Source: Nocardioidaceae bacterium
GTDB taxonomy: Bacteria; Actinomycetota; Actinomycetes; Propionibacteriales; Nocardioidaceae
Direction: 5' to 3'
Length of the DNA: 36,829 bases
NCBI GenBank assembly: GCA_032154865.1
Contig: JALDXR010000001.1
Coordinates: forward strand, 1 to 36,829
Position numbers and translations under genes: made by a program. Every line of letters begins with the position of its first letter. Position 1 is the first letter of the stretch. Under the pieces are notes generated by a model. That model ran no database searches, was not told the origin of the DNA, and worked only from the letters and a program-made list of their open reading frames with translations. This document shows, piece after piece, positions 3,068 to 36,829 of this stretch.

Positions 3068-3128
3068 CCTGGGCCGATGCCGGATCGAGGTCTCGCGTTA
3101 TAAGAAGGACCACAACCACTTCGTTCCA

Positions 3129-3147: not shown

Positions 3148-3170
3148 CTGCACGAAGACTGATAAACAGT

Positions 3171-3185: not shown

Positions 3186-3204
3186 AACAACTGAGGTACT
3201 GACG

Positions 3205-14252: not shown

Positions 14253-14560
14253 CCGACCGCCGGGTCAAGGCCAGCCGCAAGCAGGAGGAGGCCACGGCCA
14301 AGGCGATCAACGGGCGCCGGCAGCCGGGCAGCGGGTCCGGGTGGGTGCACCGCAATGACGTGCGGTCGGACCGGTTCCTCGTCGAGAACAAACGCACCGA
14401 CAATGAGCGGACGATCACCATCAAGGCCGATGACCTCCGTCAGCTGAGGATCAATGCCATCCGGCTCGACCGGATCGGGGTGCTGGAGTTCTACCTCGGT
14501 GGGCACAACTATGTGGTCCTTCACCGTGATGACTTCTCGGAGTATGTTGAAGGTCAGTGA
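14249..14560 (+). CDS. small PD-(D/E)xK nuclease, Hjc-like putative Holliday-junction resolvase
   Basis: GTGA overlap with recA. GSGSGW..NDV(R)SD..LVENK gives a D...ExK arrangement in a roughly 100-aa protein. Confidence 0.6.
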   Translation: MTDRRVKASRKQEEATAKAINGRRQPGSGSGWVHRNDVRSDRFLVENKRTDNERTITIKADDLRQLRINAIRLDRIGVLEFYLGGHNYVVLHRDDFSEYVEGQ

Positions 14561-14919
14561 ACGATGATCGGGTCGCTCGCTACGGTCTGTCGGCGTGGGC
14601 CTTCTTCTTCGTCGATGAAGAGGTGCGCGCTGCAGTCACGGGCTGGATGCTGCAGGGGAAGTGCTTCGACTCCGGGCTCGGGGACCTGTTCGTCCCCAAG
14701 GTCGGCTCCACCACGGCCACCCACGACCGCAACCGGGCGATCGCGATCTGCAACGGCACCGAGGACGGGCGCCCGTGTCCGGTGAGAGACGCCTGCGGCG
14801 AGTACGCAATCGTCCACGGGATCACCAGGGGGGTGTGGGGCGGGATGTCAAGCCGGCAGCTCAAGCTGGCAATCAAAGAGCGAACAAAGCTCGGCGTCGA
14901 AAGCCCGCAGTACCACTAG
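14557..14919 (+). CDS. whiB: WhiB-family Fe-S transcription factor
   Basis: Four Cys (C..CNGTEDGRPCPVRDAC) followed by the GVWGG turn and a basic tail. GTGA overlap at the start. Confidence 0.9.
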   Translation: MNDDRVARYGLSAWAFFFVDEEVRAAVTGWMLQGKCFDSGLGDLFVPKVGSTTATHDRNRAIAICNGTEDGRPCPVRDACGEYAIVHGITRGVWGGMSSRQLKLAIKERTKLGVESPQYH

Positions 14920-23507: not shown

Positions 23508-23950
23508 TGACGATCGCCGTACTCCTCGACGGGCTCTTGGTCGAGAACGTCGCCACCCTCCCCAACGCCGACCCGATCCCCGCCGCCCTGCGGTTCGTCC
23601 GCATGTTCGGCGGCTACAGCCGGGTGCTCATCGTGACGGCGGCGCCGGCGGAGATCGACGACGACACGATCCGCAACTGGGTCCGGCAGTACAACATCCC
23701 GATGACCGACCTCGTTCGCCTGGAGCCCCACCCCGCCGTGCGCAACGAGGACTTGATTCTGTCCGCCGCCGGGTACCGGGCGACGGTACTTGGTCTCTAC
23801 GTTGTGGCGTACCCTTACGACGTCGAGTACATGGCCGCCCACGGCGTGCCGACGGTCGCCTTCGCCCACGCCGACCCGGTGATCGACTACCGCCCCGAGC
23901 GCGGTCTGACGTGGGCCAGCTACGGGCGGAGTCAGGAGGCTGACGAGTGA
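23504..23950 (+). CDS. HAD/NT5C-like fold protein lacking the nucleophile Asp (tentative)
   Basis: ATGA overlap at the start. The N-terminus IAVLLDGLLVEN resembles the 5'(3')-deoxyribonucleotidase motif I, recalled as IAVDMDGVLAD, but the first Asp is Leu. Confidence 0.55.
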   Translation: MMTIAVLLDGLLVENVATLPNADPIPAALRFVRMFGGYSRVLIVTAAPAEIDDDTIRNWVRQYNIPMTDLVRLEPHPAVRNEDLILSAAGYRATVLGLYVVAYPYDVEYMAAHGVPTVAFAHADPVIDYRPERGLTWASYGRSQEADE

Positions 23951-25230
23951 GACTTTGGTTCGGCGGTGCCGAGGTCCCCGAGCACCGGACGACGCTCGGG
24001 CGCGCCGGCGTTCGGCGGGTCGCCGTGAACCTCGCTCCGATCCTCAAGCAGCGCTCCGGCGGCGCCGGCCCGGTCGAGAGCCTGGAGCCCTTCGCAGCGC
24101 TGTTCTACGCCTCTCAGGCCGATCTGCGGGCCGAGGGGGTGGATGAGTTCCTGGAGGCCTACAGCGACGATCAGAGCGCCTTCTACGGGCTCCTGACGCC
24201 ATTCACGGAGCGCTCCGGGCGCCTGGTGCCCGAGTGGCTCGGGCTCGATCCCGAGGAGGCCATCGAGATGGTCGTCGAGCACGGCGCCGTCGGCATCCCC
24301 GAAGCCCGGGCGATCGAGGCTCGCACGAGCCGGATCCTGACCAAGTTCCTGCGCCGCAACAGCGCCTCGCGGTTCTTCGTCAACAGCTCGAAGGTCTCGG
24401 TGCTCCAGCAGCCCTTCATCACCGACGTCATCGTCAACGGGTGGGTCTCGGCCCAGCGCTACCGCGAGCTGCAGGTGTGGGATGGCACCAAGGTCGTGCG
24501 CGCCGGCAAGGAGCGCCGGGCCGCCGCCCTGTCCAAGTTCTCCCAGCAGATCGAGAACCTGGGCGGCGACTTCGAGGCCGTCGAGGAGGGCGACGTCGCC
24601 GCGACCACCGAGGTGGCGATCGCCTCGTGGCTTCAGTACGAGCAGGTGGTTGCTACGCCTCATGCTCTCGGGCTCTCCGGCGAGAACGACGGCACCGACG
24701 TTGCCGTTGCGACGCACGGTGCCGTGGTCCGCAGGCCGGAGCAAGTGCCGATCCCGATCGCTCACGTCGATGAGGCCGGCACGATGGCCGGCGTCATCGG
24801 CGGGTCGTTCCGTCAGTGCGACGCCTGTCTGCTCGCCGACCTGTGCCCGAAGTTCGAGTCCGGGGCCTACTGCGCCTTCACGGTCGATGTCGAGATCCGC
24901 GACACCGACCAGGCGATGGCGGCGATGTCGACGCTCATCGAGATCCAGATGCAGCGCGCCCAGCGCGCCGTGTTCGCCGAGGAGGTCCTGGGCCAAGGGC
25001 CCAAGCATGAGGTCTCGGTCGAGCTGGAGCGGGTGTTCCGCATGTTCGAGTCGATGCGTCGGATCCAGGAGAACCGGGAGACGCTGACGATCCACGCCTC
25101 GACGTCGGGCGGCGACGGTGTGCTCTCGAAGATCTTCGGGCCCCGGGTCGGCTCGGCGAACAAGGAGCTGTCTCAGCCAGTCACCATCGATGCAGTCATC
25201 GAGGAGTCAGGAATAATCGACGCGGAGTGA
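23947..25230 (+). CDS. hypothetical 427-aa protein with internal Cys cluster
   Basis: GTGA overlap at the start. CDACLLADLCPKFESGAYC cluster and a helical C-terminal third. It is the last gene before the sparsely coding boundary region. Confidence 0.75.
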   Translation: MRLWFGGAEVPEHRTTLGRAGVRRVAVNLAPILKQRSGGAGPVESLEPFAALFYASQADLRAEGVDEFLEAYSDDQSAFYGLLTPFTERSGRLVPEWLGLDPEEAIEMVVEHGAVGIPEARAIEARTSRILTKFLRRNSASRFFVNSSKVSVLQQPFITDVIVNGWVSAQRYRELQVWDGTKVVRAGKERRAAALSKFSQQIENLGGDFEAVEEGDVAATTEVAIASWLQYEQVVATPHALGLSGENDGTDVAVATHGAVVRRPEQVPIPIAHVDEAGTMAGVIGGSFRQCDACLLADLCPKFESGAYCAFTVDVEIRDTDQAMAAMSTLIEIQMQRAQRAVFAEEVLGQGPKHEVSVELERVFRMFESMRRIQENRETLTIHASTSGGDGVLSKIFGPRVGSANKELSQPVTIDAVIEESGIIDAE

Positions 25231-25338: not shown

Positions 25339-25680
25339 ATGGCCACGAAGAAGTCCGCCGCCGATGAAGAGGCTGTGGCGGATCCCCACGCCGAGGCGTT
25401 CGCCGAGCGTCAGAAGGACGCCCGCTACGACGACCCGACCGTGTCCACGCCCGGCGTGCTCGAAGACGCCGCCGGCGAAGGACCCACGGCGCTCGTCGAC
25501 CCCGAGGCCGAGGGCGACGTCGGGCTCGACCCCGGCATCGACAACCGCGATCAGGTCCAGCCGATGCTCGACAAGCTCGCCTCCGACGCGGAGGAGAAGG
25601 CCGAGGAGCAGAAGGAAGCAGCGGCCGCCGCCAGCTCCAGCTCGTCGAGCAGCTCGACCACCAAGTCCGCCGACAAGTAG
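25339..25680 (+). CDS. acidic, low-complexity protein with poly-Ser run
   Basis: Strong SD AGGAGGAACCAC before the ATG. 113 aa with a Glu/Asp/Ala-rich composition, ending [20 protein letters not shown]. It is a stand-alone gene between non-coding gaps. Confidence 0.65.
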   Translation: MATKKSAADEEAVADPHAEAFAERQKDARYDDPTVSTPGVLEDAAGEGPTALVDPEAEGDVGLDPGIDNRDQVQPMLDKLASDAEEKAEEQKEAAAAASSSSSSSSTTKSADK

Positions 25681-25743
25681 ACCTCCCGCCGTCTTCCCAC
25701 CCTCCTGGGAGTCCGCCGCCTGGGAGCTTGACGGTGGTCGAGA

Positions 25744-25777
25744 GGTAGTGCCTCACTCTCGCCAGTGGGGCACTACC
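25744..25777. terminator. 14-bp stem hairpin (GGTAGTGCCTCACT-ctcgcc-AGTGGGGCACTACC), potentially bidirectional
   Basis: 13 Watson-Crick pairs plus one G-T wobble. It lies 64 nt after the + strand stop at 25680 and overlaps the stop of the candidate minus-strand ORF. No U-tract on either strand. Confidence 0.65.
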
Positions 25778-26030
25778 GCGTCAATCGCCGAAGTCGTTCC
25801 TGAACCCCCTCTCGGTCCATGCGGGCACTGCGCAACTCGCGCTTCGCACACACGACCTTGGAGTGACCGTGCTCGGATGCCTGGCCGTGGAGGGGGCAGG
25901 CAGGATCTGAGCCCGCCGGCGCCCAGTCGGCCGAGCGCCCAGGCCGGGGCTGTCGGCATGAGCACGAGCCGCACACCGTGCACCAGCGGCCGCCGTAGCG
26001 CTCGTCGCACCAGATGATCACGGCCGGCAA
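25773..26030 (-). CDS. candidate Cys-rich small protein (only plausible minus-strand gene)
   Basis: This frame has very high GC3 over its first ~40 codons, clearly better than any + frame here or the overlapping 113-aa minus frame. TTG start, or GTG at codon 4. WCDERYGGRWCTVCGSCSC...CPLHG. No SD was seen. Confidence 0.4.
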   Translation of the reverse strand: MPAVIIWCDERYGGRWCTVCGSCSCRQPRPGRSADWAPAGSDPACPLHGQASEHGHSKVVCAKRELRSARMDREGVQERLRRLTR

Positions 26031-26048
26031 GGTAGTTCATCGCCGATG

Positions 26049-26084
26049 TTGTGTCTCGCACACCGACGGTGTAGCTTCTGGGCC
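26049..26084 (+). promoter_or_regulatory. promoter cassette P1 (leaderless): TTGTGT-N17-TAGCTT-N7-ATG
   Basis: -35 at 26049-26054, -10 at 26072-26077, ATGAGCAC at 26085. No SD in the 7-nt spacer. Confidence 0.65.
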
Positions 26085-26405
26085 ATGAGCACATCCACCA
26101 AGCGCCCCCGCCTCGTCGTGGGCCACACCTACCGCATCACCTTCGCCGATGCTGAGACCGGCAACCGCCGGTACAGCACCACGGTCACGATTGTGGACAA
26201 GGACCAGACCTGGAGCGACAAGCGGGCCAGCGCCGTCCATGCCTACATCTCCCGCTGGATCCGTCACGGCCGCAACACCGTCGAGATCGTCGAGGTGGCA
26301 GCGCTTCAGTATCGCTGCACCGAGTGCGACACCGTCCACAGCACGTTCGACGCCGCAGCTCGTTGTCACTGGGGTATCGGTGGGGTCGAGGAGGTGGCGG
26401 CATGA
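26085..26405 (+). CDS. hypothetical protein, first gene of operon 1 (MST...)
   Basis: Starts ATGAGCAC 7 nt after the -10. 106 aa with CTEC...C near the C-terminus. Confidence 0.7.
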   Translation: MSTSTKRPRLVVGHTYRITFADAETGNRRYSTTVTIVDKDQTWSDKRASAVHAYISRWIRHGRNTVEIVEVAALQYRCTECDTVHSTFDAAARCHWGIGGVEEVAA

Positions 26406-26773
26406 GCTTCTACCGCAAGTCTCGCCCTCGTCCCGACGGGACCACGGGCTACAGCGGGTACGACCACGCTGACACCATCGATGACGCCGTCGAGGCCTAC
26501 AAGCGGGCTCGATCGACGAAGCACTTCATCCTCACCGACGGGTCCCCGGACCTCGACATGCTGACCTGCACGTGCGGCCACAAGCTCTCCGAGGGCGACG
26601 ATGGCAACCGCTGCCAGCTCGTCAAGCGCAACGGCGTGTTCTACGTCCTGGCCCAGCACTACAAGTGCGCCTGGGGCACCCTCCTCGGTGCCATCGGCAC
26701 TTCCCACACACTGGCCGAGGCCGGCGGCAAGCTCGCCCGCGCCGAGGCCGGCGGCTGGAAGGCGGTCGCATGA
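26402..26773 (+). CDS. hypothetical protein
   Basis: ATGA overlap at the start. 123 aa, contains CTCGH...C...C. Confidence 0.65.
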   Translation: MSFYRKSRPRPDGTTGYSGYDHADTIDDAVEAYKRARSTKHFILTDGSPDLDMLTCTCGHKLSEGDDGNRCQLVKRNGVFYVLAQHYKCAWGTLLGAIGTSHTLAEAGGKLARAEAGGWKAVA

Positions 26774-26940
26774 GCGTCATCGTCATCTGCGAGGACGGTG
26801 AGCGTCGGCACGACGAACCGTTCGAGACACGGGCCCAGGCGGCCGAGTTCGCCAACTGGGGCCACTGCTGCACCAACCGTCACCGCATCGTCACCGACGC
26901 CGGCGTCGAGTTGGGCATCACCTCGACGGAGTCACGATGA
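26770..26940 (+). CDS. hypothetical small protein
   Basis: ATGA overlaps at both ends. 56 aa. Confidence 0.6.
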   Translation: MSVIVICEDGERRHDEPFETRAQAAEFANWGHCCTNRHRIVTDAGVELGITSTESR

Positions 26941-27164
26941 AGTGGAACTTCATCGACAGTGGTCGTTGGGAGTCTGCCGATGGCCAGTGGCGCATCGAGA
27001 CCGAGGGCGTCCCGAGCAACTGGGGCGGCGGCGACATCATCGTCTGGCGCATTCATCGCTGGGACGGCCACCGGTGGCGCACGTTCGACCCCAAGAGCCG
27101 GCACCGCACATTGGCGGCCGCCAAGGTCGCCGTCGTCATGCACCTGGAAGACGCGAAGCGGTAA
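26937..27164 (+). CDS. hypothetical Trp-rich small protein
   Basis: ATGA overlap at the start. 75 aa (WNF..GRWESADGQWRIE..WRIHRWDGHRWR). Confidence 0.65.
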   Translation: MKWNFIDSGRWESADGQWRIETEGVPSNWGGGDIIVWRIHRWDGHRWRTFDPKSRHRTLAAAKVAVVMHLEDAKR

Positions 27165-27219
27165 CATCGTTGTACAACACAGATCTTGCCCGAGCTGGGT
27201 ATCTCTTTGGTGAGTGCTC

Positions 27220-27486
27220 ATGCAGTACCGGTGGTGCACCGGGAAGCGTGGCTCGGGAAGTGCACCGGATCAGCCCCGGGGGGATTCGTCCCTCCGGGGC
27301 TTGGTCATTGTGAAGAACGATCTCATCGCCACGGCCGCCTTCGGGCTGGTTCTGTACGTCTGCTGGCTGAGGTTCCTCGTGCGGGTGCACGAGAACCGGC
27401 TCGACCGCCGTGACTACTACGACCCGCCGACCGGCCGGCCGTGGGTACGGCCCCGACCCAGGTACGACAGAGATCTTTCACACTGA
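27220..27486 (+). CDS. small membrane protein (start uncertain: 27214 GTG, 27220 ATG or 27310 GTG)
   Basis: One TM (LIATAAFGLVLYVCWLRFLV). GC3 is very high after 27310 and moderate before it. Confidence 0.5.
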   Translation: MQYRWCTGKRGSGSAPDQPRGDSSLRGLVIVKNDLIATAAFGLVLYVCWLRFLVRVHENRLDRRDYYDPPTGRPWVRPRPRYDRDLSH

Positions 27487-27488
27487 CG

Positions 27489-27524
27489 TTGTGCACAACG
27501 ACGTTGTGCTGTAGCGTCTCCGCC
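27489..27524 (+). promoter_or_regulatory. promoter cassette P2 (leaderless): TTGTGC-N17-TAGCGT-N7-ATG, with nested palindromes
   Basis: -35 at 27489-27494, -10 at 27512-27517, ATGAGCAC at 27525. A 14-bp palindrome CGTTGTGCACAACG lies at 27487-27500 and a 17-bp palindrome GCACAACGACGTTGTGC at 27493-27509. Confidence 0.7.
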
Positions 27525-27713
27525 ATGAGCACTTATCCAGACATCACGGGCGACGCCCAAGCCGTCGTCCGCTTCCAGCAGGCGTACGCCGAGTTCGCCT
27601 TCCTCTGCTACGGCATCCCCGTCGGGCAGCCGATCGTCGTGACCGTCGAGCAGGACAAGTTCCTGTGCGACTCCGCCGTCGAGTACCTGCGGGATCAGGC
27701 GGTGGCGCGATGA
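27525..27713 (+). CDS. hypothetical protein, first gene of operon 2 (MST...)
   Basis: Leaderless-type start. 62 aa. Confidence 0.7.
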   Translation: MSTYPDITGDAQAVVRFQQAYAEFAFLCYGIPVGQPIVVTVEQDKFLCDSAVEYLRDQAVAR

Positions 27714-28078
27714 GGGCCATCGATCGTCACGAGGACGCCATCGTCGCTGTCCTCGACGCCGTCGACTACGACGGCATGAGCTACTGGCGGGCGCTCAAGC
27801 AGGTCGCCAACGCCAATGGTCTCCGCTCGGCCCGCCTCGACCAGCTGGTGCGCACATGGTGCGCCATCGCCGGTATCGAGGTGCCGACTGGCAACTACTC
27901 GTTCCACGTCAGCCTTCACCGGTTCGACGACGGCGGGACGCTCGCCAAGTGGTCCGCCATGGGCCCCGTCAATCAGACCGCCACCTTCGTCCGCTTCATC
28001 GGTTCCGGTACCGCCGGCACCATCGATGAGGCCGAGGCGGCCGCCATCAACTACATCGCAGAGAGGACTCCATCATGA
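27710..28078 (+). CDS. hypothetical protein
   Basis: ATGA overlap at the start. 122 aa. Confidence 0.65.
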   Translation: MRAIDRHEDAIVAVLDAVDYDGMSYWRALKQVANANGLRSARLDQLVRTWCAIAGIEVPTGNYSFHVSLHRFDDGGTLAKWSAMGPVNQTATFVRFIGSGTAGTIDEAEAAAINYIAERTPS

Positions 28079-28422
28079 ATCGTGAACAAGCCATCACCAA
28101 CCTCGGCTTCGGGCGGGCGTTCGCCGCTCTCGCGCCGGCGCCCGAGGACACCCACCTCCAGGTCGACCTCGACACGCTGTTGTCGGTCCTGGAGGCGCTT
28201 CCCGGCTACGCCGAGGTCGACATCACCTTCACTGAAGGTGGCGACTCCCAGAACTTCCACCTGATGGCCCGCGACATGCCCGGCCCCGGCCGGCGCTTCA
28301 CGTGTCTCACGCACGGCACCGAGTGGCTCGACGTCAGCGACATCATCCGCAGCACTCGCCCGGACTTCATCCACATCGTTCGCCACGACGACCCAGGTCA
28401 GACGATCTGGGTCACGTTGTGA
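28075..28422 (+). CDS. hypothetical protein
   Basis: ATGA overlap at the start. 115 aa. Confidence 0.65.
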   Translation: MNREQAITNLGFGRAFAALAPAPEDTHLQVDLDTLLSVLEALPGYAEVDITFTEGGDSQNFHLMARDMPGPGRRFTCLTHGTEWLDVSDIIRSTRPDFIHIVRHDDPGQTIWVTL

Positions 28423-28423
28423 C

Positions 28424-28852
28424 ATGAACGTTCTTCCCGTTGCACTGGGCCGCCTGGCTGGCCGCATCGTCATCGACGGTGATCACTGGCTGTGGACTGG
28501 CTACATCGACGCCAAGGGCTACGGCGCGGCCAGGCACCCGGTGCACGGGAAGGTGCGTCGTGTTCACATCATCGTCTGGGAGCTGCTTGTCGGTCCTCGG
28601 ACACCGGGCCTGCAGTTTGATCATCTGTGCCGAGTTCGGCACTGCTGTAACCCGGCACATTTGGAAGAGGTGACAGCGGCCGAGAACACCGATCGTGGTG
28701 CAGCCCGACGTGGTCACCATCTGACACGCACACACTGCAGTCACGGCCACCTGCTCGTCGAGCATGGCTACATCGATCCGCGTCGCGGTCAGTGGCGCTG
28801 CCGAGTGTGCCTCCACGAAAGTTATTTGCGCAGGTCAGCGCAGTCTGACTGA
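28424..28852 (+). CDS. HNH homing-type endonuclease
   Basis: DGDHWLWTGYIDAKGYG...VHIIVWELLVG...LQFDHLCRVRHCCNPAHLEEVTAAEN is the classic phage HNH_3-type signature. Confidence 0.85.
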   Translation: MNVLPVALGRLAGRIVIDGDHWLWTGYIDAKGYGAARHPVHGKVRRVHIIVWELLVGPRTPGLQFDHLCRVRHCCNPAHLEEVTAAENTDRGAARRGHHLTRTHCSHGHLLVEHGYIDPRRGQWRCRVCLHESYLRRSAQSD

Positions 28853-28916
28853 TGCGCGCACCCATCTGCGCACAATGCGTAGGACATCAACCCAACCCCG
28901 GAAGGAAACACCAACC

Positions 28917-29315
28917 GTGAATACTCAAACCAACACCGCTGAAGTCGTCGAGCTGGCTGATGCCACGCTCGGACTTCAGGTCCACCGGCTGATCGAGCTG
29001 GACGCCAAGATCAAGGCGGCCAAGGAGGCTCGCGACGAGCTGGCCGCCGAGATCGTCGAGGCGATCGACGCCCGTGACGGCACCGTCACTGTCGACGGCA
29101 TCAAGGTCACCGTCGTGCGCGCCGTGCGCCGGGTGATCGACATCGCCAAGCTGGAGCAGGTCACCAGCCGCCGGCTGTTCGCCAAGCTCACCGAGCGCGT
29201 CGTCAGCATCAAGGCGTACGACGCCCACCTGGCTGCCGGCACGGCCGGCATCGAGGCGGTCGAGGAGATCGTCGAGGAGCGTGAGAACGCTCCGGTCCTC
29301 AGGATCACGAAGTGA
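28917..29315 (+). CDS. hypothetical coiled-coil protein (similar layout to 8350-8775)
   Basis: GTG 28917 lies 10 nt after GGAAGGA; an alternative ATG is at 28875. 132 aa. Confidence 0.6.
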   Translation: MNTQTNTAEVVELADATLGLQVHRLIELDAKIKAAKEARDELAAEIVEAIDARDGTVTVDGIKVTVVRAVRRVIDIAKLEQVTSRRLFAKLTERVVSIKAYDAHLAAGTAGIEAVEEIVEERENAPVLRITK

Positions 29316-29319
29316 CGTC

Positions 29320-29940
29320 ATGAGCTACGTCAATGCGCAGTATGACCCCGACGGTCAGCTGCACCTCGTCCCGCAGCCTCACTCCTTCTGGAGTGGGGCT
29401 GCCAAGGGCGCCGTCTTCGGCGCCATCCTGGCCGGCGTCACACGACCTGTCCGGCGCTACATGCTGACGATGCTGGCGCTCACCTTCGCCATCATCTTCA
29501 CCATCGAGACACCCAGCGACTACTGGGACGGTGTCTCGACGCCGGCGCCCGAGCCGGGCGACTACCGCTTCCCGTGGTACTGCATCGCTCTCATCATCAC
29601 CTTCGTTGTCTGGGGCATCTACGGAGGCATCCGGGCGTGGATCCTCAACCGCCAGATCTACGCCGCCGGACAGGCGCCTGTGCAGCGCCTGAAGGCTCGC
29701 ATGAGCGGCCGGGCGATCATCGCCGTCGATACCACGCCGCGGCCGCCACAGAGCCCCACAGGGCCCTCTCGTGGGCCCGTAGTGGACACGACCGCGACCG
29801 ATGCGCCGGTGGGCTCGAACCTGCCGGCGATCTGGGTCCCGACCTACAGCGGGCCGGCCAAGCCGGTGCGCCGGATCGAGACCGGGCTCAGCGGTCACAC
29901 CATCCATGATCACCGCGGCGTCGACCCGGAGGACCTGTGA
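29320..29940 (+). CDS. integral membrane protein (3 TM) with Pro-rich C-terminal region
   Basis: TM segments AVFGAILAGV, YMLTMLALTFAIIFTI and WYCIALIITFVVWGIYGGI. Confidence 0.65.
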   Translation: MSYVNAQYDPDGQLHLVPQPHSFWSGAAKGAVFGAILAGVTRPVRRYMLTMLALTFAIIFTIETPSDYWDGVSTPAPEPGDYRFPWYCIALIITFVVWGIYGGIRAWILNRQIYAAGQAPVQRLKARMSGRAIIAVDTTPRPPQSPTGPSRGPVVDTTATDAPVGSNLPAIWVPTYSGPAKPVRRIETGLSGHTIHDHRGVDPEDL

Positions 29941-30245
29941 TGCACTACCAACTGTTCCACAACCGCTCCGCCGGCTTCTGGCGGACCTACGAGCCGGGCG
30001 ACGAGCTGGTCGCCGGCTACCGGGGCGAGTTCCCGCCGTGCTTCAGCATCCGCGACGACCTCGACCCTCGCGAGGCGCTCCTCGGCATCGCCGAGGTGAT
30101 CTTCGCCAAGCACAACCGCGATGACCGCCCCGACGGCAAGACGGCGCCCAGTCTGAGCGTCGGCGACGTCGTCGTGATCGGTGAGGTCGCTCTGTCGGTC
30201 GACCGGCTCGGCTTCGTCTTCGTCACCCTGGAGCCGGCGTCATGA
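29940..30245 (+). CDS. hypothetical protein
   Basis: ATG in a TGATG overlap (or GTG 29937). 101 aa. Confidence 0.65.
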   Translation: MHYQLFHNRSAGFWRTYEPGDELVAGYRGEFPPCFSIRDDLDPREALLGIAEVIFAKHNRDDRPDGKTAPSLSVGDVVVIGEVALSVDRLGFVFVTLEPAS

Positions 30246-30430
30246 GCGCCAAGGCCTGGGTCTGGAAGCGGTGCTCCGCCGGCCACAACCGGTGGTACGA
30301 GTACGGCCCCTACACGATCATGCACTTCCCGCAGCGACATCTCTGGAAGCTGTACATCGACGGTGAGATGGTCCGCACGTTCGACACCTTGCGCGCCGCC
30401 AAGCAGTGGGCCCAGTGGAGGATGTCATGA
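30242..30430 (+). CDS. hypothetical small protein
   Basis: ATGA overlap at the start. 62 aa. Confidence 0.6.
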   Translation: MSAKAWVWKRCSAGHNRWYEYGPYTIMHFPQRHLWKLYIDGEMVRTFDTLRAAKQWAQWRMS

Positions 30431-30654
30431 GCCGGTTCGAGTTCGAGCCCGAGACCCCCGAGTACGACCTCGTGATCGCGGCCATCGAGGTCGCCATGCG
30501 GCCGCCCTTGCAGCCGCATCCGCACGTGGTCGACGCCAAGGTCCCGTGGAAGCTGATCACCGACCTGCGCGAGCGCCTCGACGCCCTGGGCATCGACTGG
30601 CGCAAGGCCAAGCAGATCGACGAGGAGCGGCGAGCCCGGAGGGCTGCGTCATGA
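30427..30654 (+). CDS. hypothetical small protein
   Basis: ATGA overlap at the start. 75 aa. Confidence 0.6.
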   Translation: MSRFEFEPETPEYDLVIAAIEVAMRPPLQPHPHVVDAKVPWKLITDLRERLDALGIDWRKAKQIDEERRARRAAS

Positions 30655-30842
30655 TCATCCACGAGAACTACAGCGGGGATGACAACGGCCAGCTGGTGTA
30701 CGTCAACATCTTCGAGGAGAACGGCGGCCAGGTCGTCGTCAGCTTCGAGGATGCCGGCGAGGCACGGTTCGACGCCCACCGCCTGCGGCGGTTCCGCAAC
30801 AACCTCAACAAGGCGCTCCGGGCGCTCGGTGAGAAACCGTGA
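30651..30842 (+). CDS. hypothetical small protein
   Basis: ATGA overlap at the start. 63 aa. Confidence 0.6.
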   Translation: MIIHENYSGDDNGQLVYVNIFEENGGQVVVSFEDAGEARFDAHRLRRFRNNLNKALRALGEKP

Positions 30843-30851
30843 TCATCGACG

Positions 30852-30887
30852 TTGTTGTTCATCGACGGTGTGGATAGCGTTCCGCCC
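30852..30887 (+). promoter_or_regulatory. promoter cassette P3 (leaderless): TTGTTG-N17-TAGCGT-N7-ATG
   Basis: -35 at 30852-30857, -10 at 30875-30880, ATGAGCAC at 30888. Shares the CGACGTTG..TTCATCGACGGTG block with P4 and P5. Confidence 0.7.
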
Positions 30888-31580
30888 ATGAGCACTTACG
30901 AAGTTGAACACGACACCCGCCTCCTGGAGCTGTTCCGGGCGGCGGCCAAGGCCGAACAGACCCTCATCTGGAAGGACGCCCACTACCGCAGCGAGTCGGA
31001 GGGCCGCCTGGTCCGGCGGAGGTACGGGGACAAGGACACCCGCACGATCGCCGAGGTCGCCGCTGACATGCAGGCCCGCCGCGACGAGGCCGTTCCGTTC
31101 TGGACCGAGAAGCACCCCGAGGACCCTCAGCGCATGATCGACTACGTCGTCGGCAAGCTCGACGAGGTCGAGAACAGCTACCGCGAGGCCGCCCAGGCCG
31201 TCGTGGACGCCGAGGCCGCGATCGTCGAGCACGAGCGGGCGTACGCTGGCTGGCAGCGCTTCTGGCTGGTGACGTCGAGCAACGGGCTCGTGCACCGGTC
31301 GACGGGCTGCTCGACCTGCAACAAGGGCCGCAGCGCCACCACGTTCGCCCTCGTTGCCGCGATGAGCGGCCGGCCGATCGACCACCTCGTCGAGGCCGTC
31401 GGTCCGTTCCTCTGCAGCGTCTGCTTCCCCTCGGCCCCGGTCGAGTGGCAGGAGCAGGACCGTGTGCCGGCGACCGTCGCCACGGTGCTGTTCGACGAGG
31501 GCTACGACGCCTTCGTCGCCGCCTGGGCCGAGTTCAAGCGCAAGCGGGCCGCCCGCCTCGCCAAGAAGGCGGCGAAGTGA
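30888..31580 (+). CDS. hypothetical protein, first gene of operon 3 (MST...)
   Basis: 230 aa. Contains GCSTC ... CSVC and a basic tail KRKRAARLAKKAAK. Confidence 0.7.
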   Translation: MSTYEVEHDTRLLELFRAAAKAEQTLIWKDAHYRSESEGRLVRRRYGDKDTRTIAEVAADMQARRDEAVPFWTEKHPEDPQRMIDYVVGKLDEVENSYREAAQAVVDAEAAIVEHERAYAGWQRFWLVTSSNGLVHRSTGCSTCNKGRSATTFALVAAMSGRPIDHLVEAVGPFLCSVCFPSAPVEWQEQDRVPATVATVLFDEGYDAFVAAWAEFKRKRAARLAKKAAK

Positions 31581-31822
31581 TGGCCCGCTACCTGCGCACC
31601 ACGATCTCACGTGTCACCGGGCGACCGGTGACCGTGGGCCACGGCGCCGATCTCGGTCTCGACTTCGAGGGCGAGGGCCCGTGGTACACCATCTGTGACG
31701 ATCACGCTCAGCTGTGCTCGCACACCACCCTGGCCGACGCACGTGGGTGGGCCGCCGAACCGACGATGTGGTGCGAAGCCTGCCAGTCCGAGCACCCGCT
31801 CAAGCTCCGAAAGGACGCATGA
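31580..31822 (+). CDS. hypothetical protein
   Basis: TGATG overlap at the start. 80 aa with C..C...C..C. Confidence 0.6.
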   Translation: MARYLRTTISRVTGRPVTVGHGADLGLDFEGEGPWYTICDDHAQLCSHTTLADARGWAAEPTMWCEACQSEHPLKLRKDA

Positions 31823-32145
31823 CCATGGGCAATCTCAATGCCGCTGCGATGGCTGAGGCCGTCGGCGAGGGCCAGGTCGGACTCCGGCCGGCGCTCGTTT
31901 GGCACCTCCAGTCCAACCACTACCCGCCGGTGCCGACCTCGATGGTCGACGCCTGTATCGCCGCCATCGAGGCGGCCGCCGATGATGACTGGGACCTCGA
32001 CATCGAGCTGCCCGACAGCGTCACCTACCGCGACCAGTCGACAGCTCCGGCGTCGGCGATCGTCGCCAACTACCACCTGGAGTTCTTCGTCGAGAACCAG
32101 TTGGTCATCAACGAAGCAACCGAGTTCGAGACCGAGGAGTCATGA
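31819..32145 (+). CDS. hypothetical protein
   Basis: ATGA overlap at the start. 108 aa. Confidence 0.6.
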   Translation: MTMGNLNAAAMAEAVGEGQVGLRPALVWHLQSNHYPPVPTSMVDACIAAIEAAADDDWDLDIELPDSVTYRDQSTAPASAIVANYHLEFFVENQLVINEATEFETEES

Positions 32146-32510
32146 GCATCCACCCAGCCCAACACCCCCGCTTCGCCCAGGCGATGTGGTACGCCTGGGG
32201 CCAGCAGGACGCCGGCATCGGCCGTCATGTCGACGCCCCCGAGTTCGCCCTGGCGCACGCCACGCACGCCGTGCGCGTCGACGAGGGCCAGGACAACTGG
32301 CTGCCGTCGATCCAGGACGCCTGGAAGACGTTCATCGCCTCTCGTCAGACCATGTCGGCGCTCTCCGAGCCCGAGATCGGCACGATCCAGAAGCGTCTCT
32401 CATCGGCGATGAACGAACTCGACGCCTGCGGCCAGGGCGACCTGGCGAACCGGGTGCACGACATCTTCAAGGAAGTCGCCCGCCGCACGTTCGGGGAGGT
32501 GCCGGCATGA
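32142..32510 (+). CDS. hypothetical protein
   Basis: ATGA overlap at the start. 122 aa. Confidence 0.65.
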   Translation: MSIHPAQHPRFAQAMWYAWGQQDAGIGRHVDAPEFALAHATHAVRVDEGQDNWLPSIQDAWKTFIASRQTMSALSEPEIGTIQKRLSSAMNELDACGQGDLANRVHDIFKEVARRTFGEVPA

Positions 32511-32851
32511 ACACCGCCGTTGATCAAGCGATCGACTGGGTGCGGGACAACATGCCCATCGAGTCGGGCGCGGCGATCGAGCAGTTCGTCAAGCGCAACC
32601 CGCACTACGCCGGCGCCAACTGGGACGACGTCCTGGAGATCCTCCTCGACGCCGACGCCGACCTCACTTGGACCGAGCCGCTGCACGAGGTCGACGAGAC
32701 CTTCCCGGCCAACGTCCTGGAGTCCGCCGTCACCACCACCTTCGCCTGGGCCATCGAGGCCTTCATCGAGGAGCTGGCGCCGATCGAGCGCATCTCCTCG
32801 GTGCGGACGACCATCAACCTCATCAACGAAGACAAGGAACAACAGCAATGA
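32507..32851 (+). CDS. hypothetical acidic protein
   Basis: ATGA overlap at the start. 114 aa. The track ORF region 31838-32506 is out-of-frame Arg/Pro/Ser-rich sequence. Confidence 0.65.
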   Translation: MNTAVDQAIDWVRDNMPIESGAAIEQFVKRNPHYAGANWDDVLEILLDADADLTWTEPLHEVDETFPANVLESAVTTTFAWAIEAFIEELAPIERISSVRTTINLINEDKEQQQ

Positions 32852-33051
32852 CCGCGAATCGACACAGCGAGATCACCCGCACCATCGAAGCCGACAAGGA
32901 GGGACTCATCGAGCACCTCCGCGAGGCGCTCGGCCGCCACGAGCACACCCACCTCCGGTCGCCGAGCGAGGCCTGGGCCGCCGGCTGGAACCGAGGTCTG
33001 GAGTTCGCCATCGGCGTGCTCGAAGACTGGGACGGCAAGGTGCCGTCATGA
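32848..33051 (+). CDS. hypothetical small protein
   Basis: ATGA overlap at the start. 67 aa. Confidence 0.6.
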   Translation: MTANRHSEITRTIEADKEGLIEHLREALGRHEHTHLRSPSEAWAAGWNRGLEFAIGVLEDWDGKVPS

Positions 33052-33425
33052 GAGGCTCCGTCGAGTTCAGCACCAACGTCACGGTCGATGATCGTGACCC
33101 TGTGGTGCTCACCAATCAGGATCACTTCTCCCATCGCGGCAAGCCGTTCCGTACGGAGCAATGGCGAGCCGTCGGTAACACCTACGGTGACGACATCGGC
33201 ACGTGGTCGTGGTATCGCTCCGGCAAGATCCTCAAGAACGACGGCACGCCGCGTGCGGACGGGGCCGGCGCTACGTCGTACGTCAAGTTCGACGACGTCC
33301 CCGGCTACGTCCTGCGGGCGGTGCTGAAGGAGATCGAGCGGCGCGCCCGGGCGGCGCATGCCGAGATCGATCACTGGGTCCAGAGGGCTCGCGATCAGGT
33401 TACCGCGGTGGAGGCACCGGCATGA
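33048..33425 (+). CDS. hypothetical protein
   Basis: ATGA overlap at the start. 125 aa. Confidence 0.65.
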   Translation: MRGSVEFSTNVTVDDRDPVVLTNQDHFSHRGKPFRTEQWRAVGNTYGDDIGTWSWYRSGKILKNDGTPRADGAGATSYVKFDDVPGYVLRAVLKEIERRARAAHAEIDHWVQRARDQVTAVEAPA

Positions 33426-33658
33426 GTCAGCATCGTTGTCACTGCCGGCAGCCGGCGACGTGGACCGCCCGCGTCGTGCCGGCGCGGGAGGTCGTCCTCG
33501 TCGAGGGCCACCTGCCCGAGTACGTCCTGGCTCCCTCGTCGGTCGACACCTGGGCGGCGTGTGATGAGCACGTCGCCGAGGCGATGCGCAACCTCGTCGA
33601 GCGCAACGACATGGCCGGCGCTCAGCTCGTGCTCCGTCGAGAGGGCGAGGAGGACTGA
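33422..33658 (+). CDS. hypothetical small protein
   Basis: ATGA overlap at the start. 78 aa. Confidence 0.6.
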   Translation: MSQHRCHCRQPATWTARVVPAREVVLVEGHLPEYVLAPSSVDTWAACDEHVAEAMRNLVERNDMAGAQLVLRREGEED

Positions 33659-33963
33659 TGCGGTTCCTGATCTGTCCGGTGTGCGGCGAGGAGTGGGATC
33701 TCGACGACCTCCACGCAGAGGTCGCTGAGAGCGCCCACAAGGGCCTCAGGCGGCCATTCAGCGCCGTTGTGCGTGAGTTCCAGCGGCAGGGCTGTGGCGT
33801 CGCTCTGGAGGCCTTCACGGGCCCTCTGGCGTGCCGCCCGAGCACCGACCCGGACACCGTCGAGCTGGCCGAGATGGCGAAGATGACCTACGAGCTGCTC
33901 GGCGCCGACATCGACGGGTGCATCAACGAGATCGAGGACTACCGGCTCGTGCACGGGCTCTGA
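33658..33963 (+). CDS. hypothetical protein with N-terminal CPVC motif
   Basis: TGATG overlap at the start. 101 aa. Confidence 0.65.
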   Translation: MRFLICPVCGEEWDLDDLHAEVAESAHKGLRRPFSAVVREFQRQGCGVALEAFTGPLACRPSTDPDTVELAEMAKMTYELLGADIDGCINEIEDYRLVHGL

Positions 33964-33970
33964 GGAACTT

Positions 33971-34016
33971 GCACAACGACGTTGTGCTTCATCGACGATG
34001 ACGTAGACTTCCCGCC
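33971..34016 (+). promoter_or_regulatory. promoter cassette P4 (leaderless): TTGTGC-N16-TAGACT-N7-ATG, with the 17-bp palindrome
   Basis: The palindrome GCACAACGACGTTGTGC at 33971-33987 is identical to 27493-27509. -35 at 33982-33987, -10 at 34004-34009, ATGAGCAC at 34017. Confidence 0.7.
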
Positions 34017-34826
34017 ATGAGCACAACAGCCACCTCGAAGCAGCTCGGCTTCCTCGGTTCCCTCCTCCGGGAGCGGGCCCGCCAGCTGCATATCACCGAT
34101 GTCGAGGCCGCCATCACCGCACTCACCGAGCAGCGGATCACGATGGACGGCGCCTCGGCGACGATCAACCACCTCCTCACGCTGAAGACCGACGCCGTCG
34201 TCTTCCCCGCTGCGCCGGTCCAGGGCGACCCCCGCGGCAACCTGCCGAAGAACCGCTACAGCGGCCGTTGCGTCCTGTGCAACGCGAACGTCGCCGAGGG
34301 CGCCGGCACCTACCGCCGCGGCGACCGCGGCTGGGAGACGCTGCACCTGCCCGGTCAGTGCGCCGGCCCGGCCCTGACCTCGGACAAGCCGAAGCAGACC
34401 TTCGGCGAGCGCGTCACCGAGATCCTCGGCGACCTGCCCGACGGCTGGTACGCCGTCGAGGCCGTCGGCGAGAGCACCAACGACCTCACCTTCGTCCGGT
34501 TCGCCACGAACAAGGGCGTGTACGACGCCTCGAAGAAGGGTCAGCGCTACGTCCGCCACATCGTCGGCGGGCACGGCGAGCAGGGCAACGTCACCATCGC
34601 CTGGATCGAGAAGGTGGCCGCCGCCGTGCGTGCCGCCGGGACCGACGAGTCGGCGATCCTGTTCGGTCAGCGGATGGGCCAGTGCGGGTTCTGCCACACC
34701 GAGCTGACTCGTAAGTACAGCGCCGACAAAGGCTACGGCCCGACGTGCGCAGACAAGCACGGGCTTCCCTTCGACTACACCGCCTATGCGGCGAGCCAGA
34801 AGATCTCGGACGCGAAGGGTGAGTGA
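34017..34826 (+). CDS. hypothetical protein, first gene of operon 4 (MST...), with C-terminal DUF6011-like Cys motif
   Basis: CGFCHTELTRKYSADKGYGPTCADKHG fits my recollection of the CxxC...LT...S...G(I/Y)GPxC pattern. An extra CVLC...C lies mid-protein. 269 aa. Confidence 0.7.
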   Translation: MSTTATSKQLGFLGSLLRERARQLHITDVEAAITALTEQRITMDGASATINHLLTLKTDAVVFPAAPVQGDPRGNLPKNRYSGRCVLCNANVAEGAGTYRRGDRGWETLHLPGQCAGPALTSDKPKQTFGERVTEILGDLPDGWYAVEAVGESTNDLTFVRFATNKGVYDASKKGQRYVRHIVGGHGEQGNVTIAWIEKVAAAVRAAGTDESAILFGQRMGQCGFCHTELTRKYSADKGYGPTCADKHGLPFDYTAYAASQKISDAKGE

Positions 34827-34827
34827 G

Positions 34828-35076
34828 ATGGACAGGCATCTCGTCGTCCGCAGCCGGAACCCCTGGGTCGGTGTGAGCAAGTCTCACGCCGCCCAGGCCG
34901 GTACCGGCGCTCCTCCGCGCAACGCTCCCGCCGGCTACGCCAACGACGTCGAGTACACGTCGTTGTGCGGCCGCCGGCATTTCATCGCCACGACCGGCAC
35001 CTTCGAGGAGCTGGCGGAGTGGGAACAGTGCGGCCGGTGTGCCGCGATCATCGAACGAAAGGAACAACAGTCATGA
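34828..35076 (+). CDS. hypothetical small protein
   Basis: ATG lies 1 nt after the upstream stop and is preceded by AAGGGTGAGTGAG. 82 aa, with C...CGRC at the C-terminus. Confidence 0.55.
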   Translation: MDRHLVVRSRNPWVGVSKSHAAQAGTGAPPRNAPAGYANDVEYTSLCGRRHFIATTGTFEELAEWEQCGRCAAIIERKEQQS

Positions 35077-35417
35077 CCACGTCCATCCTCGTGGGCCCGG
35101 ACGACACCGGTCGGGACATCGTGCCCGAGCAGCTGCTCGCCCAGATCGGCATCGGCAACCTGATGGCCGTCTCCGGCGGCCGCTGGATCCGCTACGGGTT
35201 CAGCTCGGTCCGGTTCCCCTGCGGCGCCGGCTACGAGGTCCTCGTGACCCTGGAGGCCGACGACACCTACACCGTGCGGCGGATCTTCAGCCGCAGCGGT
35301 ACGTGGTTCCTCCACGGCGAGCGCACCAACGTCTACAACGACGCTGTCTCCGAGGTCGTCTACTTCGCGTCTTGTTTCCGTAGTTACGAGCCCGGCGAGT
35401 GGGAGCACAAGGCATGA
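35073..35417 (+). CDS. hypothetical protein
   Basis: ATGA overlap at the start. 114 aa. Confidence 0.65.
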   Translation: MTTSILVGPDDTGRDIVPEQLLAQIGIGNLMAVSGGRWIRYGFSSVRFPCGAGYEVLVTLEADDTYTVRRIFSRSGTWFLHGERTNVYNDAVSEVVYFASCFRSYEPGEWEHKA

Positions 35418-35578
35418 TCTGCAAGCACTGCGCCTGGACCCACGATCACGTGCACTGCACTTGTAGCCGGTTCTTCCGCGGCGTGCAGGTGCACGAGGTC
35501 CAGGCGCTCGATCCGAACTGCCCGCAGCACGGCATCGGCACCGACTGGTACCGGCGAGAGGTCGAGCTGGAGAGCTGA
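35414..35578 (+). CDS. 54-aa Cys/His-rich protein (below the ORF-track cutoff)
   Basis: ATGA overlap at 35414. Translation is MICKHCAWTHDHVHCTCSRFF...NCPQHG...ELES, ending at TGA 35576-35578. High GC3. Confidence 0.5.
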   Translation: MICKHCAWTHDHVHCTCSRFFRGVQVHEVQALDPNCPQHGIGTDWYRREVELES

Positions 35579-35599
35579 AGTGCAGTGTCGTTGCACTTC
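35577..35599 (+). terminator. 8-bp stem hairpin GAAGTGCA-gtgtcgt-TGCACTTC followed by TTGG
   Basis: Exact inverted repeat that starts in the stop codon of the last operon-4 ORF. Confidence 0.55.
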
Positions 35600-35635
35600 T
35601 TGGCTGCCGTTCACCCCTGCGTAACCCGATCTTCA

Positions 35636-35671
35636 TTGACGCTGGACTTCCTGGCGTGTTGACTGGGCCTC
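35636..35671 (+). promoter_or_regulatory. degenerate sixth cassette: TTGACG-N17-TTGACT-N7-GTG
   Basis: It has the same N17/N7 geometry as P1-P5. However, the -10 position 2 is T rather than A, and the start codon is GTG. Confidence 0.3.
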
Positions 35672-35854
35672 GTGACTGCTCCTCTCGACGACGTCGCGGT
35701 GCACCGGGTGCCGTGCTCGGACTGCGGTCGCACGCGCCTGCTCGGCATCGAGCGCACCGTTCTGGCCATCGTGCCGGCGCCCGGTCCGCACCGCAATGAA
35801 CTCATCGTCGATGTGATCGTGACCGTGCTCGACGGCTGCGGGGACTGCACCTGA
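35672..35854 (+). CDS. 60-aa zinc-ribbon protein
   Basis: CSDCG ... CGDC pairs. GTG start with no SD. Confidence 0.45.
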   Translation: MTAPLDDVAVHRVPCSDCGRTRLLGIERTVLAIVPAPGPHRNELIVDVIVTVLDGCGDCT

Positions 35855-35873
35855 GAAATCCCGCTCAGCGGCG

Positions 35874-35908
35874 TTGCGTTCATCAACGGTGTGCGTAGAC
35901 TTCCCCCC
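35874..35908 (+). promoter_or_regulatory. promoter cassette P5 (leaderless): TTGCGT-N16-TAGACT-N7-ATG
   Basis: -35 at 35874-35879, -10 at 35896-35901, ATGAGCAC at 35909. GTAGACTTCCC is identical to P4. Confidence 0.7.
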
Positions 35909-36829
35909 ATGAGCACGACCAATGAACTCCGGGCGCTCCTCGGCGATCTCGCCGACCTGGCGCTCCCGCACCTGCAGGGCCGCCTGGTCCCGATCCACAA
36001 GGGCCGCACGACCCTCTCCAAGGCGCACGACGCCGACCTGGGCGACTTCTTCCTCGCCTCGACGATGTACCCCTATCAGCGGGCCGGCGCGGCGTTTGTC
36101 GCCGAGGTCCGCCGGGCGCTCATCGCCTACGACATGGGCCTGGGCAAGACCATCACGGCGATCGGCTCGGTCGTCCGCGAGGAGCTGTTCCCCGCCGTCG
36201 TGATCTGCCCGCCGAGCCTCGTGCTCAACTGGCGCAACGAGTTCGCCAAGTTCACCCCCGGTGTGCGCACCCACGTGATCCGCGGCCAGGAGATCACCGA
36301 CCTGCCCGACGCCGATGTCTACATCGTCGGTGACGCCATCATCGGCGAGCGCAAGGAGACCAAGAAGCTGGCGGCGACCCCGGGCTGGGCTGCGAAGCTC
36401 GCCGAGCTGGGTCCCCGGGCGCTCGTGATCGACGAGTCGCACCGGATGAAGAACCGCAAGGCGGCCCGCACCATCGCCGCCCGGGCGATCGCCCGCAAGG
36501 TCGACGACAAGGGCATCGTGGCGCTGCTGTCCGGCACGCCGATGCGCTCGAACCCGGCCGAGCTGCTGGAGCAGTTCCAGGTGATGGGCGTCGTCGAGCA
36601 GATCTGGGGTTCCCCCTTCGCCTTCCTCGACCGGTTCTACCCGAAGGTCGACCAGTGGGGCGGCCGTGAGGCGGACAACCTGGGCGAGCTGCACGCCGAG
36701 ATGGTCGACACCGTCGTTGCTCGGCTCACCTTCGCCGACGTCAGCTACCAGCTCGGCGAGGCGGCGCCCAAGGGCCGTCTGCGGGTCCCCGTCGCCACGC
36801 CGCTCACCGGCACCGCGGCGACGAAGTAC
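35909..36829 (+). CDS. SNF2-family helicase (copy 2), 5' partial, runs off the window end
   Basis: I translated this by hand; it is absent from the track because no stop is reached. MSTTNELRALLG..., YPYQRAGAAF, motif I DMGLGKT, motif II VIDESHRMKN, motif III LSGTPMRSNPAEL. 307 codons remain open to base 36829. Confidence 0.9.
   Translation, partial: MSTTNELRALLGDLADLALPHLQGRLVPIHKGRTTLSKAHDADLGDFFLASTMYPYQRAGAAFVAEVRRALIAYDMGLGKTITAIGSVVREELFPAVVICPPSLVLNWRNEFAKFTPGVRTHVIRGQEITDLPDADVYIVGDAIIGERKETKKLAATPGWAAKLAELGPRALVIDESHRMKNRKAARTIAARAIARKVDDKGIVALLSGTPMRSNPAELLEQFQVMGVVEQIWGSPFAFLDRFYPKVDQWGGREADNLGELHAEMVDTVVARLTFADVSYQLGEAAPKGRLRVPVATPLTGTAATKY

Follow-up and report, generated by a model that had tools for sequence, protein, structure and literature searches.

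The OR and OL regions of phages lambda, 434 and P22 are tandem dyad operators placed over phage promoters, and the repressor of phiC31 has 17-bp conserved inverted repeats. The dispersed operators of P1 C1 and the stoperators of Cluster A phages (L5 gp71) are asymmetric sites bound by a monomer, and the stoperators, located in transcribed regions, block elongation. In Cluster O mycobacteriophages, a 17-bp dyad repeat (TGTTCGGNNNCCGAACA) has been described together with SigA-like promoters whose mRNAs are predicted to be leaderless; this repeat has invariant arms, a 3-bp variable centre and no orientation bias, it is present at 34 scattered sites including some inside genes, and its binder is not known (PMC4351075). 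In T4-type phages, the PeSL elements associate a promoter with a stem-loop terminator in hyperplastic regions of small non-essential genes (PMC2839356, PMC4122927). Here, we describe five promoter cassettes, each containing two copies of a dyadic box that may serve as an operator, in a stretch of uncultured actinophage DNA of 36,829 nucleotides (nt) from contig JALDXR010000001.1, the whole of which was analysed and is called the window in the text.

Promoter cassettes P1 to P5

A search of the window for the pattern TTGNNN, 16-18 nt, TANNNT, 4-9 nt and ATG or GTG returned exactly five sites, all of them on the + strand and all in gaps between operons. These five cassettes (P1 to P5, 26.0-35.9 kb) are near-identical and consist of TTGNNN, a spacer of 16-17 nt, TAGNNT, exactly 7 nt and ATGAGCAC. 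With a matrix covering positions -30 to +8 of P1-P5, the five sites score 36-48 bits and nothing else in the window exceeds 7.3 bits on either strand; this matrix scan did not find the cassette between 1 and 26 kb. Each cassette contains two copies of a box, one over the -35 (box U) and one in the spacer just upstream of the -10 (box D). The cassettes and the operons behind them are the following:

26035-26092, + strand: P1 cassette, with the -35 TTGTGT at 26049-26054, the -10 TAGCTT at 26072-26077 and ATGAGCAC at 26085-26092; box U at 26035-26051 (GTTCATCGCCGATGTTG); box D at 26058-26074 (GCACACCGACGGTGTAG), containing the perfect 13-bp palindrome ACACCGACGGTGT
27478-27532, + strand: P2 cassette, with the -35 TTGTGC at 27489-27494, the -10 TAGCGT at 27512-27517 and ATGAGCAC at 27525-27532; box U at 27478-27494 (TCACACTGACGTTGTGC), imperfect; box D at 27493-27509, a perfect 17-mer ending 2 nt before the -10
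30841-30895, + strand: P3 cassette, with the -35 TTGTTG at 30852-30857, the -10 TAGCGT at 30875-30880 and ATGAGCAC at 30888-30895; box U at 30841-30857 (GATCATCGACGTTGTTG); box D at 30857-30873 (GTTCATCGACGGTGTGG)
33971-34024, + strand: P4 cassette, with the -35 TTGTGC at 33982-33987, a spacer of 16 nt, the -10 TAGACT at 34004-34009 and ATGAGCAC at 34017-34024; box U at 33971-33987, the second perfect 17-mer; box D at 33987-34003 (CTTCATCGACGATGACG), containing the perfect 13-bp palindrome TCATCGACGATGA
35863-35916, + strand: P5 cassette, with the -35 TTGCGT at 35874-35879, the -10 TAGACT at 35896-35901 and ATGAGCAC at 35909-35916; box U at 35863-35879 (GCTCAGCGGCGTTGCGT), weak; box D at 35878-35894 (GTTCATCAACGGTGTGC)
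26085-36829, + strand: five co-oriented operons, mostly of small genes of unassigned function, predicted to be driven by P1-P5

The start of P4 opens a gene encoding a DUF6011 protein (34017-34826), and that of P5 a gene encoding an SNF2-type helicase (35909-36829). The DUF6011 protein has homologues in metagenomes, with a gradient of identities between 80% and 35%, and contigs of 105-178 kb encode several of these. We retrieved nine relative loci, and in the six closest ones (L004-L009) the DUF6011 protein is 65-80% identical to that of the window. These six loci contain 5 to 9 cassettes each, 44 in all, which gives a family of 49 members when the window is included. All are co-oriented with the genes, and some are located at matching positions.

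In Streptomyces, the consensus sequences are TANNNT for the -10 and BTGACN for the -35, and 22% of the mRNAs are leaderless, AUG being preferred for leaderless starts (PMC8780764). All 49 members of the family have TAGNNT or TACNNT 6-8 nt before the ATG, which fits the actinobacterial TANNNT -10. The TTG of the -35 is invariant and is found 16-18 nt from the -10, and the last three bases of the -35 are off the TTGACA/BTGACN consensus. Near the start, an invariant CC precedes the ATG, a G is present at -14 and there is no Shine-Dalgarno sequence. Judged by these sequence features, the cassettes appear to be actinobacterial sigma-A-type promoters. Their geometry puts the predicted start site on the A of the ATG, and the mRNAs would therefore be leaderless. 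An E. coli-type promoter scan of the region from 20 to 36.8 kb called no promoter; its consensus is that of E. coli, and it calls no cassette because only the TTG of the -35 matches.

Upstream of P1, a gene-free gap of 404 nt (25681-26084) follows an operon that ends at 25680 (last gene 25339-25680, downstream of a DpdA-like gene). This gap contains a 14-bp inverted repeat with 93% complementarity (25744-25757 and 25764-25777). It also contains, at 25959, an orphan ATGAGCAC where neither a -10 nor boxes can be recognised, perhaps the remnant of a cassette that has decayed.

The paired boxes and their reading as operators

The initial annotation of the window had drawn attention to palindromes at P2 and P4 as a candidate operator, and the strings, palindromes and repeats that it listed are all present at the positions given for them. 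These are a perfect 14-bp palindrome (CGTTGTGCACAACG, 27487-27500), a perfect 8+1+8 palindrome (GCACAACGACGTTGTGC, the 17-mer, 27493-27509, with an identical copy at 33971-33987) and a direct repeat (GACGTTGTGC, with copies at 27485 and 27500). Its opinion that the recurrence of the 17-mer is not due to chance is also borne out: with up to 3 mismatches, 5 matches are observed in the whole window for 0.12 expected, and none of 100 shuffles reaches 5. An imperfect third copy of the 17-mer (TCACACTGACGTTGTGC, 27478-27494) abuts the perfect copy at 27493-27509, and this box U of P2 contains the stop codon of the upstream gene (27484-27486). However, the two perfect copies do not occupy the same position relative to their promoters, as had been claimed. 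They are ∼15 bp out of register with respect to the -10, the 17-mer being box D, in the spacer, in P2 and box U, at the -35, in P4. The related statement that the palindromes cover the -35s is correct for the 17-mer of P4, which covers TTGTGC, and for the 14-bp palindrome of P2, inside which TTGTGC is located, but not for the 17-mer of P2, which fills the spacer. In the relatives, the exact 17-mer is found at other promoters or positions (2833 in L006, where it is box U of the P2 orthologue, and 8130 in L009).

In the 17-mer, a more general box is present in fully symmetric form, at one end of a range. The consensus of this box is G-Y-W-C-A-n-C-G-A-C-G-K-T-G-T with the dyad core CAnCG-A-CGnTG, and most boxes fit the core pattern with 0-1 mismatches. 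Among the promoters of the window and the six relatives, 45 of 49 have paired boxes, and the resulting 45 U and 45 D boxes formed the sample for comparison. The core box positions carry 1.2-2.4 bits, and the n positions and flanks ∼0-0.5 bits. When the box matrix is compared with its own reverse complement, a value of 0.63 is obtained, for a mean of 0.27 in column permutations, none of 5000 reaching 0.63, although these symmetry statistics are partly circular, the boxes having been located by a palindromic core pattern. Symmetry is perfect over 5+1+5 or longer in 19 of the 45 D boxes and in 9 of the 45 U boxes. Moreover, the variable +/-3 positions of D boxes are complementary above expectation (16 of 37 distinct boxes, permutation p = 0.016). 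The left outer arm exists in two forms, GCACA and TTCAT, and the TGTGC of the right arm is complementary to GCACA only.

A position weight matrix built from the relatives only places the promoter boxes of the window among its top matches in the window, and no comparable intergenic match was found elsewhere in the window. With this matrix, box D of P3 (GTTCATCGACGGTGTGG) reaches 25.6 bits and the perfect 17-mer 23.7 bits. P1, P3 and P5 therefore carry full boxes and not only the half-sites initially attributed to them.

The right arm of box U provides the TTG of the -35, and the centre of box U is located 25-29 nt before the start of the -10. The centre of box D floats between 6 and 13 nt before the start of the -10 while the spacing between -35 and -10 stays at 16-18 nt, and the distance between the centres of U and D is mostly 15-16 bp, with a range of 13-23 bp. 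A floating box D fits the site of an occluding protein better than a fixed contact of the polymerase. This bears on the possibility that there is no separate regulator, the boxes being an extended promoter read by the host RNA polymerase and conserved because these are very strong early promoters. Such a possibility would account for the conservation of the whole segment from ∼-50 to +8, including the CC before the ATG and the G at -14, and for the TTG shared by the -35 and the arm of box U. We nevertheless consider it improbable: the box is present twice per promoter, with box D shifting by up to 7 bp and the centre spacing varying as above, whereas polymerase contacts should be fixed; its core is dyadic; and distant relatives swap the boxes for unrelated dyads while they keep the -35 and the -10 (see later in the text).

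The palindromes might also act at the RNA level, as hairpins constituting terminators or processing sites at the end of the upstream operons. In folding comparisons with shuffled sequences, the RNA of the P2 cassette folds slightly better than its shuffles (z = -1.98), whereas for P1, P3, P4 and P5 there is no gain over shuffles (z from +0.14 to -0.92). In such hairpins, the loop would be formed by the conserved centre of the box and the stem by its variable outer arms, contrary to the effect of structure-based selection, and the palindromes are not followed by a T-tract. A role as RNA hairpins thus appears extremely unlikely.

We favour, while giving it about an even chance, the reading that a regulator that is probably dimeric and encoded by the phage uses the boxes as operators, repressing transcription by occlusion. 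One regulator molecule would bind each box, and the occupied -35 and spacer would exclude the host RNA polymerase. The whole block of small-gene operons would then be switched off together, for example in an early-gene shut-off, and each promoter would be more or less sensitive depending on the quality of its boxes. Repression is likelier than activation because the spacer that separates the -35 from the -10 is of normal length and contains one of the boxes. Moreover, the position-specific constraint at the core of the boxes argues against recent copying as the cause of their conservation. The operator proposed in the initial annotation stands in so far as the element is not due to chance, is tied to promoters, is dyadic and is conserved in relatives; it is not special to P2 and P4, since the box is found in the whole family.

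Several points, in addition to the partial circularity mentioned above, weigh against repression by a dimer. In 74 of the 90 boxes, the coding strand has an A as central base. Many outer arms are asymmetric (TTCAT versus GTGTG), symmetry of this part being restricted to a minority of boxes. Both features count against a strict two-fold dimer because such a dimer requires neither of them. The centre of box U is at ∼-38 to -42 from the predicted start, the classic position of a class II activator, and weak -35s with only the TTG are typical of activator-dependent promoters. Orthologous promoters, which are part of the sample, are not independent samples. Finally, a Pfam search of the 24 proteins encoded between 25.3 and 36.8 kb found no DNA-binding domain. 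The DUF6011 protein was considered as the regulator of the boxes and rejected, its AlphaFold model being confident (pLDDT 86) and giving no match at E <= 0.001 with Foldseek against the PDB.

Some of these points would be explained if the boxes bound an activator or a dual-function switch. In this case, a regulator on box U would contact region 4 of sigma or the alpha subunit and offset the poor -35, in a class II-like manner or in that of T4 MotA/AsiA. A WhiB-like (Wbl) protein would possibly be involved, and box D would repress at higher concentration or stabilise the complex. The -35 made of TTG and three non-consensus bases, the empty E. coli-type scan and the position of box U all agree with activation; the oriented central A suggests a directional function, and the window encodes a WhiB-family protein (14557-14919). 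Wbl proteins bind region 4 of sigma-A. However, box D is located in a spacer of 16-18 nt, where a bound protein should block the polymerase. MerR-type activation requires a dyad in a spacer of 19-20 bp, which was not seen in any cassette, and the spacer lengths observed exclude it. In addition, the dyads of the distant relative L012 flank a perfect TTGACA, which speaks against a role of the dyads in offsetting a weak -35. Overall, we regard activation through the boxes as unlikely, and we retain occlusion by a repressor as the preferred reading.

Cassettes in related loci

In alignments of the orthologues of P4 and P2, the upstream DNA is unrelated, and the conserved segment has a sharp left limit, which coincides with that of box U, and extends to ∼+8. 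The cassette is also present on three further soil-metagenome fragments, and was not found in the structural and replication parts of the related contigs L108 and L109. Protein-guided and cassette-pattern scans of IMG/VR did not find it, and a blastn of the consensus cassette against the isolate collection gave noise only. Similarly, when both promoter regions were searched by megablast, no sequenced phage emerged as a close relative.

A genome-wide search for the 17-mer, which had been suggested as a check of the operator, did not point to a host regulon. Among 185,579 species genomes (GTDB), the exact 17-mer is found on 95 contigs as scattered single copies in many phyla, at about chance level. 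More than one copy is present at a single locus only, in an archaeal metagenome-assembled genome (contig WNEG01000102.1, 4997-5161), where the exact 17-mer occurs three times with a spacing of 74 bp; this locus looks like a repeat array unrelated to the phage and is possibly CRISPR-like. A scan of IMG/VR gave three unrelated single matches only. The short core CANCGACGNTG was rejected as a window-wide signal, as it is enriched everywhere owing to common ATC-GAC-GGT-type codons.

Two more distant loci, L010 and L012 (42% and 44% identity, respectively), have retained the -35, a -10 of the form TACNNT and the ATGAGCA of the leaderless start, and have different dyads at the same place. In L010 the dyad is TTGTGAACnnCGTACA, which occurs in both orientations. 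In L012 it is CTGTAGG..TTGACA..CCTACAG, the inverted repeats flanking the perfect TTGACA -35. A constant core promoter with lineage-specific dyads is the pattern expected from the co-evolution of an operator and its regulator.

Further details were noted in these two loci. The L010 box TGTGAACGnCGTACA lies between the -35 and the -10 in either orientation (3200, 7706, 9619, 13234 and 14155 on the + strand, 718 on the - strand), and has its inner AACGnCGT in common with the box of the window. At the L012 promoters (1052, 7174, 8764, 9824 and 10877), the arms differ yet stay complementary, as in the pairs GCTGTGG/CCACAGC, CCGTACC/GGTACaG and CTGTAGG/CCTACAG. The changes in the arms appear to compensate for one another, an unusual feature in a site bound by a protein.

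The conserved segment extends into the coding sequence. When promoters were detected without regard to the start codon, by the TTG, the two boxes and the -10 only, 35 were found, and every one of them has ATGAG(C/T)A(C/A) (Met-Ser-Thr/Asn) 6-8 nt after the -10. The first genes behind these promoters belong to 17 unrelated families. As read from these sequences, the ∼60-bp cassette itself provides the start codon and the next two codons (Met-Ser-Thr/Asn) of the predicted leaderless mRNA. Between 26 and 36 kb, the relatives differ in gene content in a mosaic fashion, and orthologous promoters are often followed by different first genes. Small proteins encoded at 25339-25680, 27710-28078, 29320-29940 and 31819-32145 are nevertheless present in all the relatives.

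This mosaic and the common start of otherwise unrelated first genes could also mean that the cassettes serve mainly for recombination, as actinophage equivalents of the T4-type PeSL, with the boxes conserved as homology for the shuffling of small genes; the PeSL cassettes behave so in T4-like phages (PMC2839356). However, homology would conserve the segment uniformly, whereas here the n positions, the flanks and the discriminator vary and specific positions are invariant, and no stem-loop terminator component was found in the folds of the cassette RNAs. As the main function of the cassettes, recombination therefore seems very unlikely to us. It can coexist with an operator function and would be an added role more than a true rival. 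A more tentative proposal, possible in our opinion but rather on the unlikely side, combines both aspects. The cassettes would be portable leaderless expression units by which small genes unrelated to one another join, through recombination, an early programme with a central switch, and the box binder would come from a DNA-binding family that is not recognised by profiles.

Gene setting and comparison with described systems

The window has a G+C content of ∼65%, and nearly all its genes are on the + strand. It encodes replication and repair proteins (a DnaB-like helicase, a primase, an SNF2-type helicase, a DNA polymerase I, a RecA/UvsX-like protein, a Cas4-type exonuclease and a RuvC-like resolvase) as well as a WhiB-like protein and a DpdA-like transglycosylase. 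No phage of the isolate collection has a DNA polymerase more than 30% identical to that of the window, those of roughly 113-kb Streptomyces phages included. Rfam and tRNA scans of the window were empty. Two genes for SNF2-type helicases are present, one in the replication module (6750-8333) and one as the first gene of the P5 operon (35909-36829), predicted to be leaderless. The gene at 23947-25230 encodes a queuine tRNA-ribosyltransferase/DpdA-like protein (PHROG 887, E = 5e-20), which hints at 7-deazaguanine modifications in the phage DNA; these could affect the recognition of the G-rich boxes by a protein.

A MarR-like winged helix-turn-helix protein of 205 amino acids (2450-3067), which had been put forward as a box-binding candidate, is conserved in the relatives, and its gene is located just upstream of the DnaB and primase genes. 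The 3' part of this gene (2967-3031) contains three tandem 22-bp inverted-repeat units, CAGGGTGGG-nnn-CCCACCCTG. At the same place, relatives have an array of three 22-bp dyads of unrelated sequence (AATCGTCGGctgcCAACCGACG in L108, 10476-10541; GCGAGCAGACccacAGTCTGCT in L109, 10516-10581). The array sequence differs along with the protein and thus co-varies with it. This arrangement suggests that the protein initiates replication from iterons of its own, at an origin of the lambda O/ori type, and this role is likelier than binding to the boxes. The remaining box-binder candidates of the window are a MerR/Xis-like helix-turn-helix protein (8950-9429) and the WhiB-like protein (14557-14919), and no link to the box was found for either of them. 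PDB sequence searches with the winged helix-turn-helix and the MerR-like proteins were uninformative.

The best box score of the window (25.7 bits) is also found in the winged helix-turn-helix gene, at 2935-2951 (GTACATCGACGGTGTAG), where the sequence encodes the conserved peptide AYIDGVE. This match was not retained as a real box; the relatives have no DNA-level conservation there, and it is most likely a coding coincidence. Downstream of the same gene, an 18-nt inverted repeat with 83% complementarity precedes gene 3205 (3119-3157). A hairpin (TCCGGCCtgcGGCCGGA, ∼3170-3186) is located just upstream of the ribosome-binding site and is conserved in L108 and L109 downstream of the winged helix-turn-helix gene.

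The cassettes offer a testable regulatory grammar for a clade of large (∼105-180 kb) uncultured high-GC actinophages without a close sequenced isolate, in which one promoter class and one box define a block of putatively co-regulated operons. Compact and leaderless, with an operator included, such promoters could be used to build switchable expression systems for actinobacteria. Moreover, the Met-Ser-Thr/Asn common to unrelated first genes indicates that leaderless translation would constrain and shape modular gene exchange.

Regulation of this kind is not conceptually new, and the boxes of the cassettes most likely represent a known type of control element of phages, here with a new design. 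As in lambda, 434, P22 and phiC31, the sites are dyads of ∼17 bp, more than one per promoter, which overlap the -35 and the spacer or the -10, and the same motif is present at several promoters with varying quality. In contrast to these systems, in which the operators are separated, the boxes described here overlap by 1-2 bp, with centres 15-16 bp apart. They also have an oriented central base, and their family-wide symmetry is limited to the inner 5+1+5. A cognate repressor gene was not found in the window, and there is no sign of a lysogeny module there.

With Cluster O, the cassettes share the actinophage context, the many copies of a 17-bp dyad and the SigA-like promoters predicted to be leaderless. 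However, the sequence of the box is unrelated to TGTTCGGNNNCCGAACA, and the boxes form pairs confined to one promoter family, whereas the Cluster O sites are not built into promoters. The repetition of short conserved promoter cassettes, with an intervening gene content that differs between close relatives, recalls the PeSL of T4. Unlike PeSL, the cassettes have no stem-loop, as four of the five fold no better than shuffles; they contain instead two dyad boxes, a start codon and two further codons. Finally, as for P1 C1 and L5 gp71, many dispersed sites or operons would be placed under one regulator by means of a short motif. In contrast to the P1 C1 and L5 gp71 sites, the boxes of the cassettes are dyadic and are always located inside promoters.

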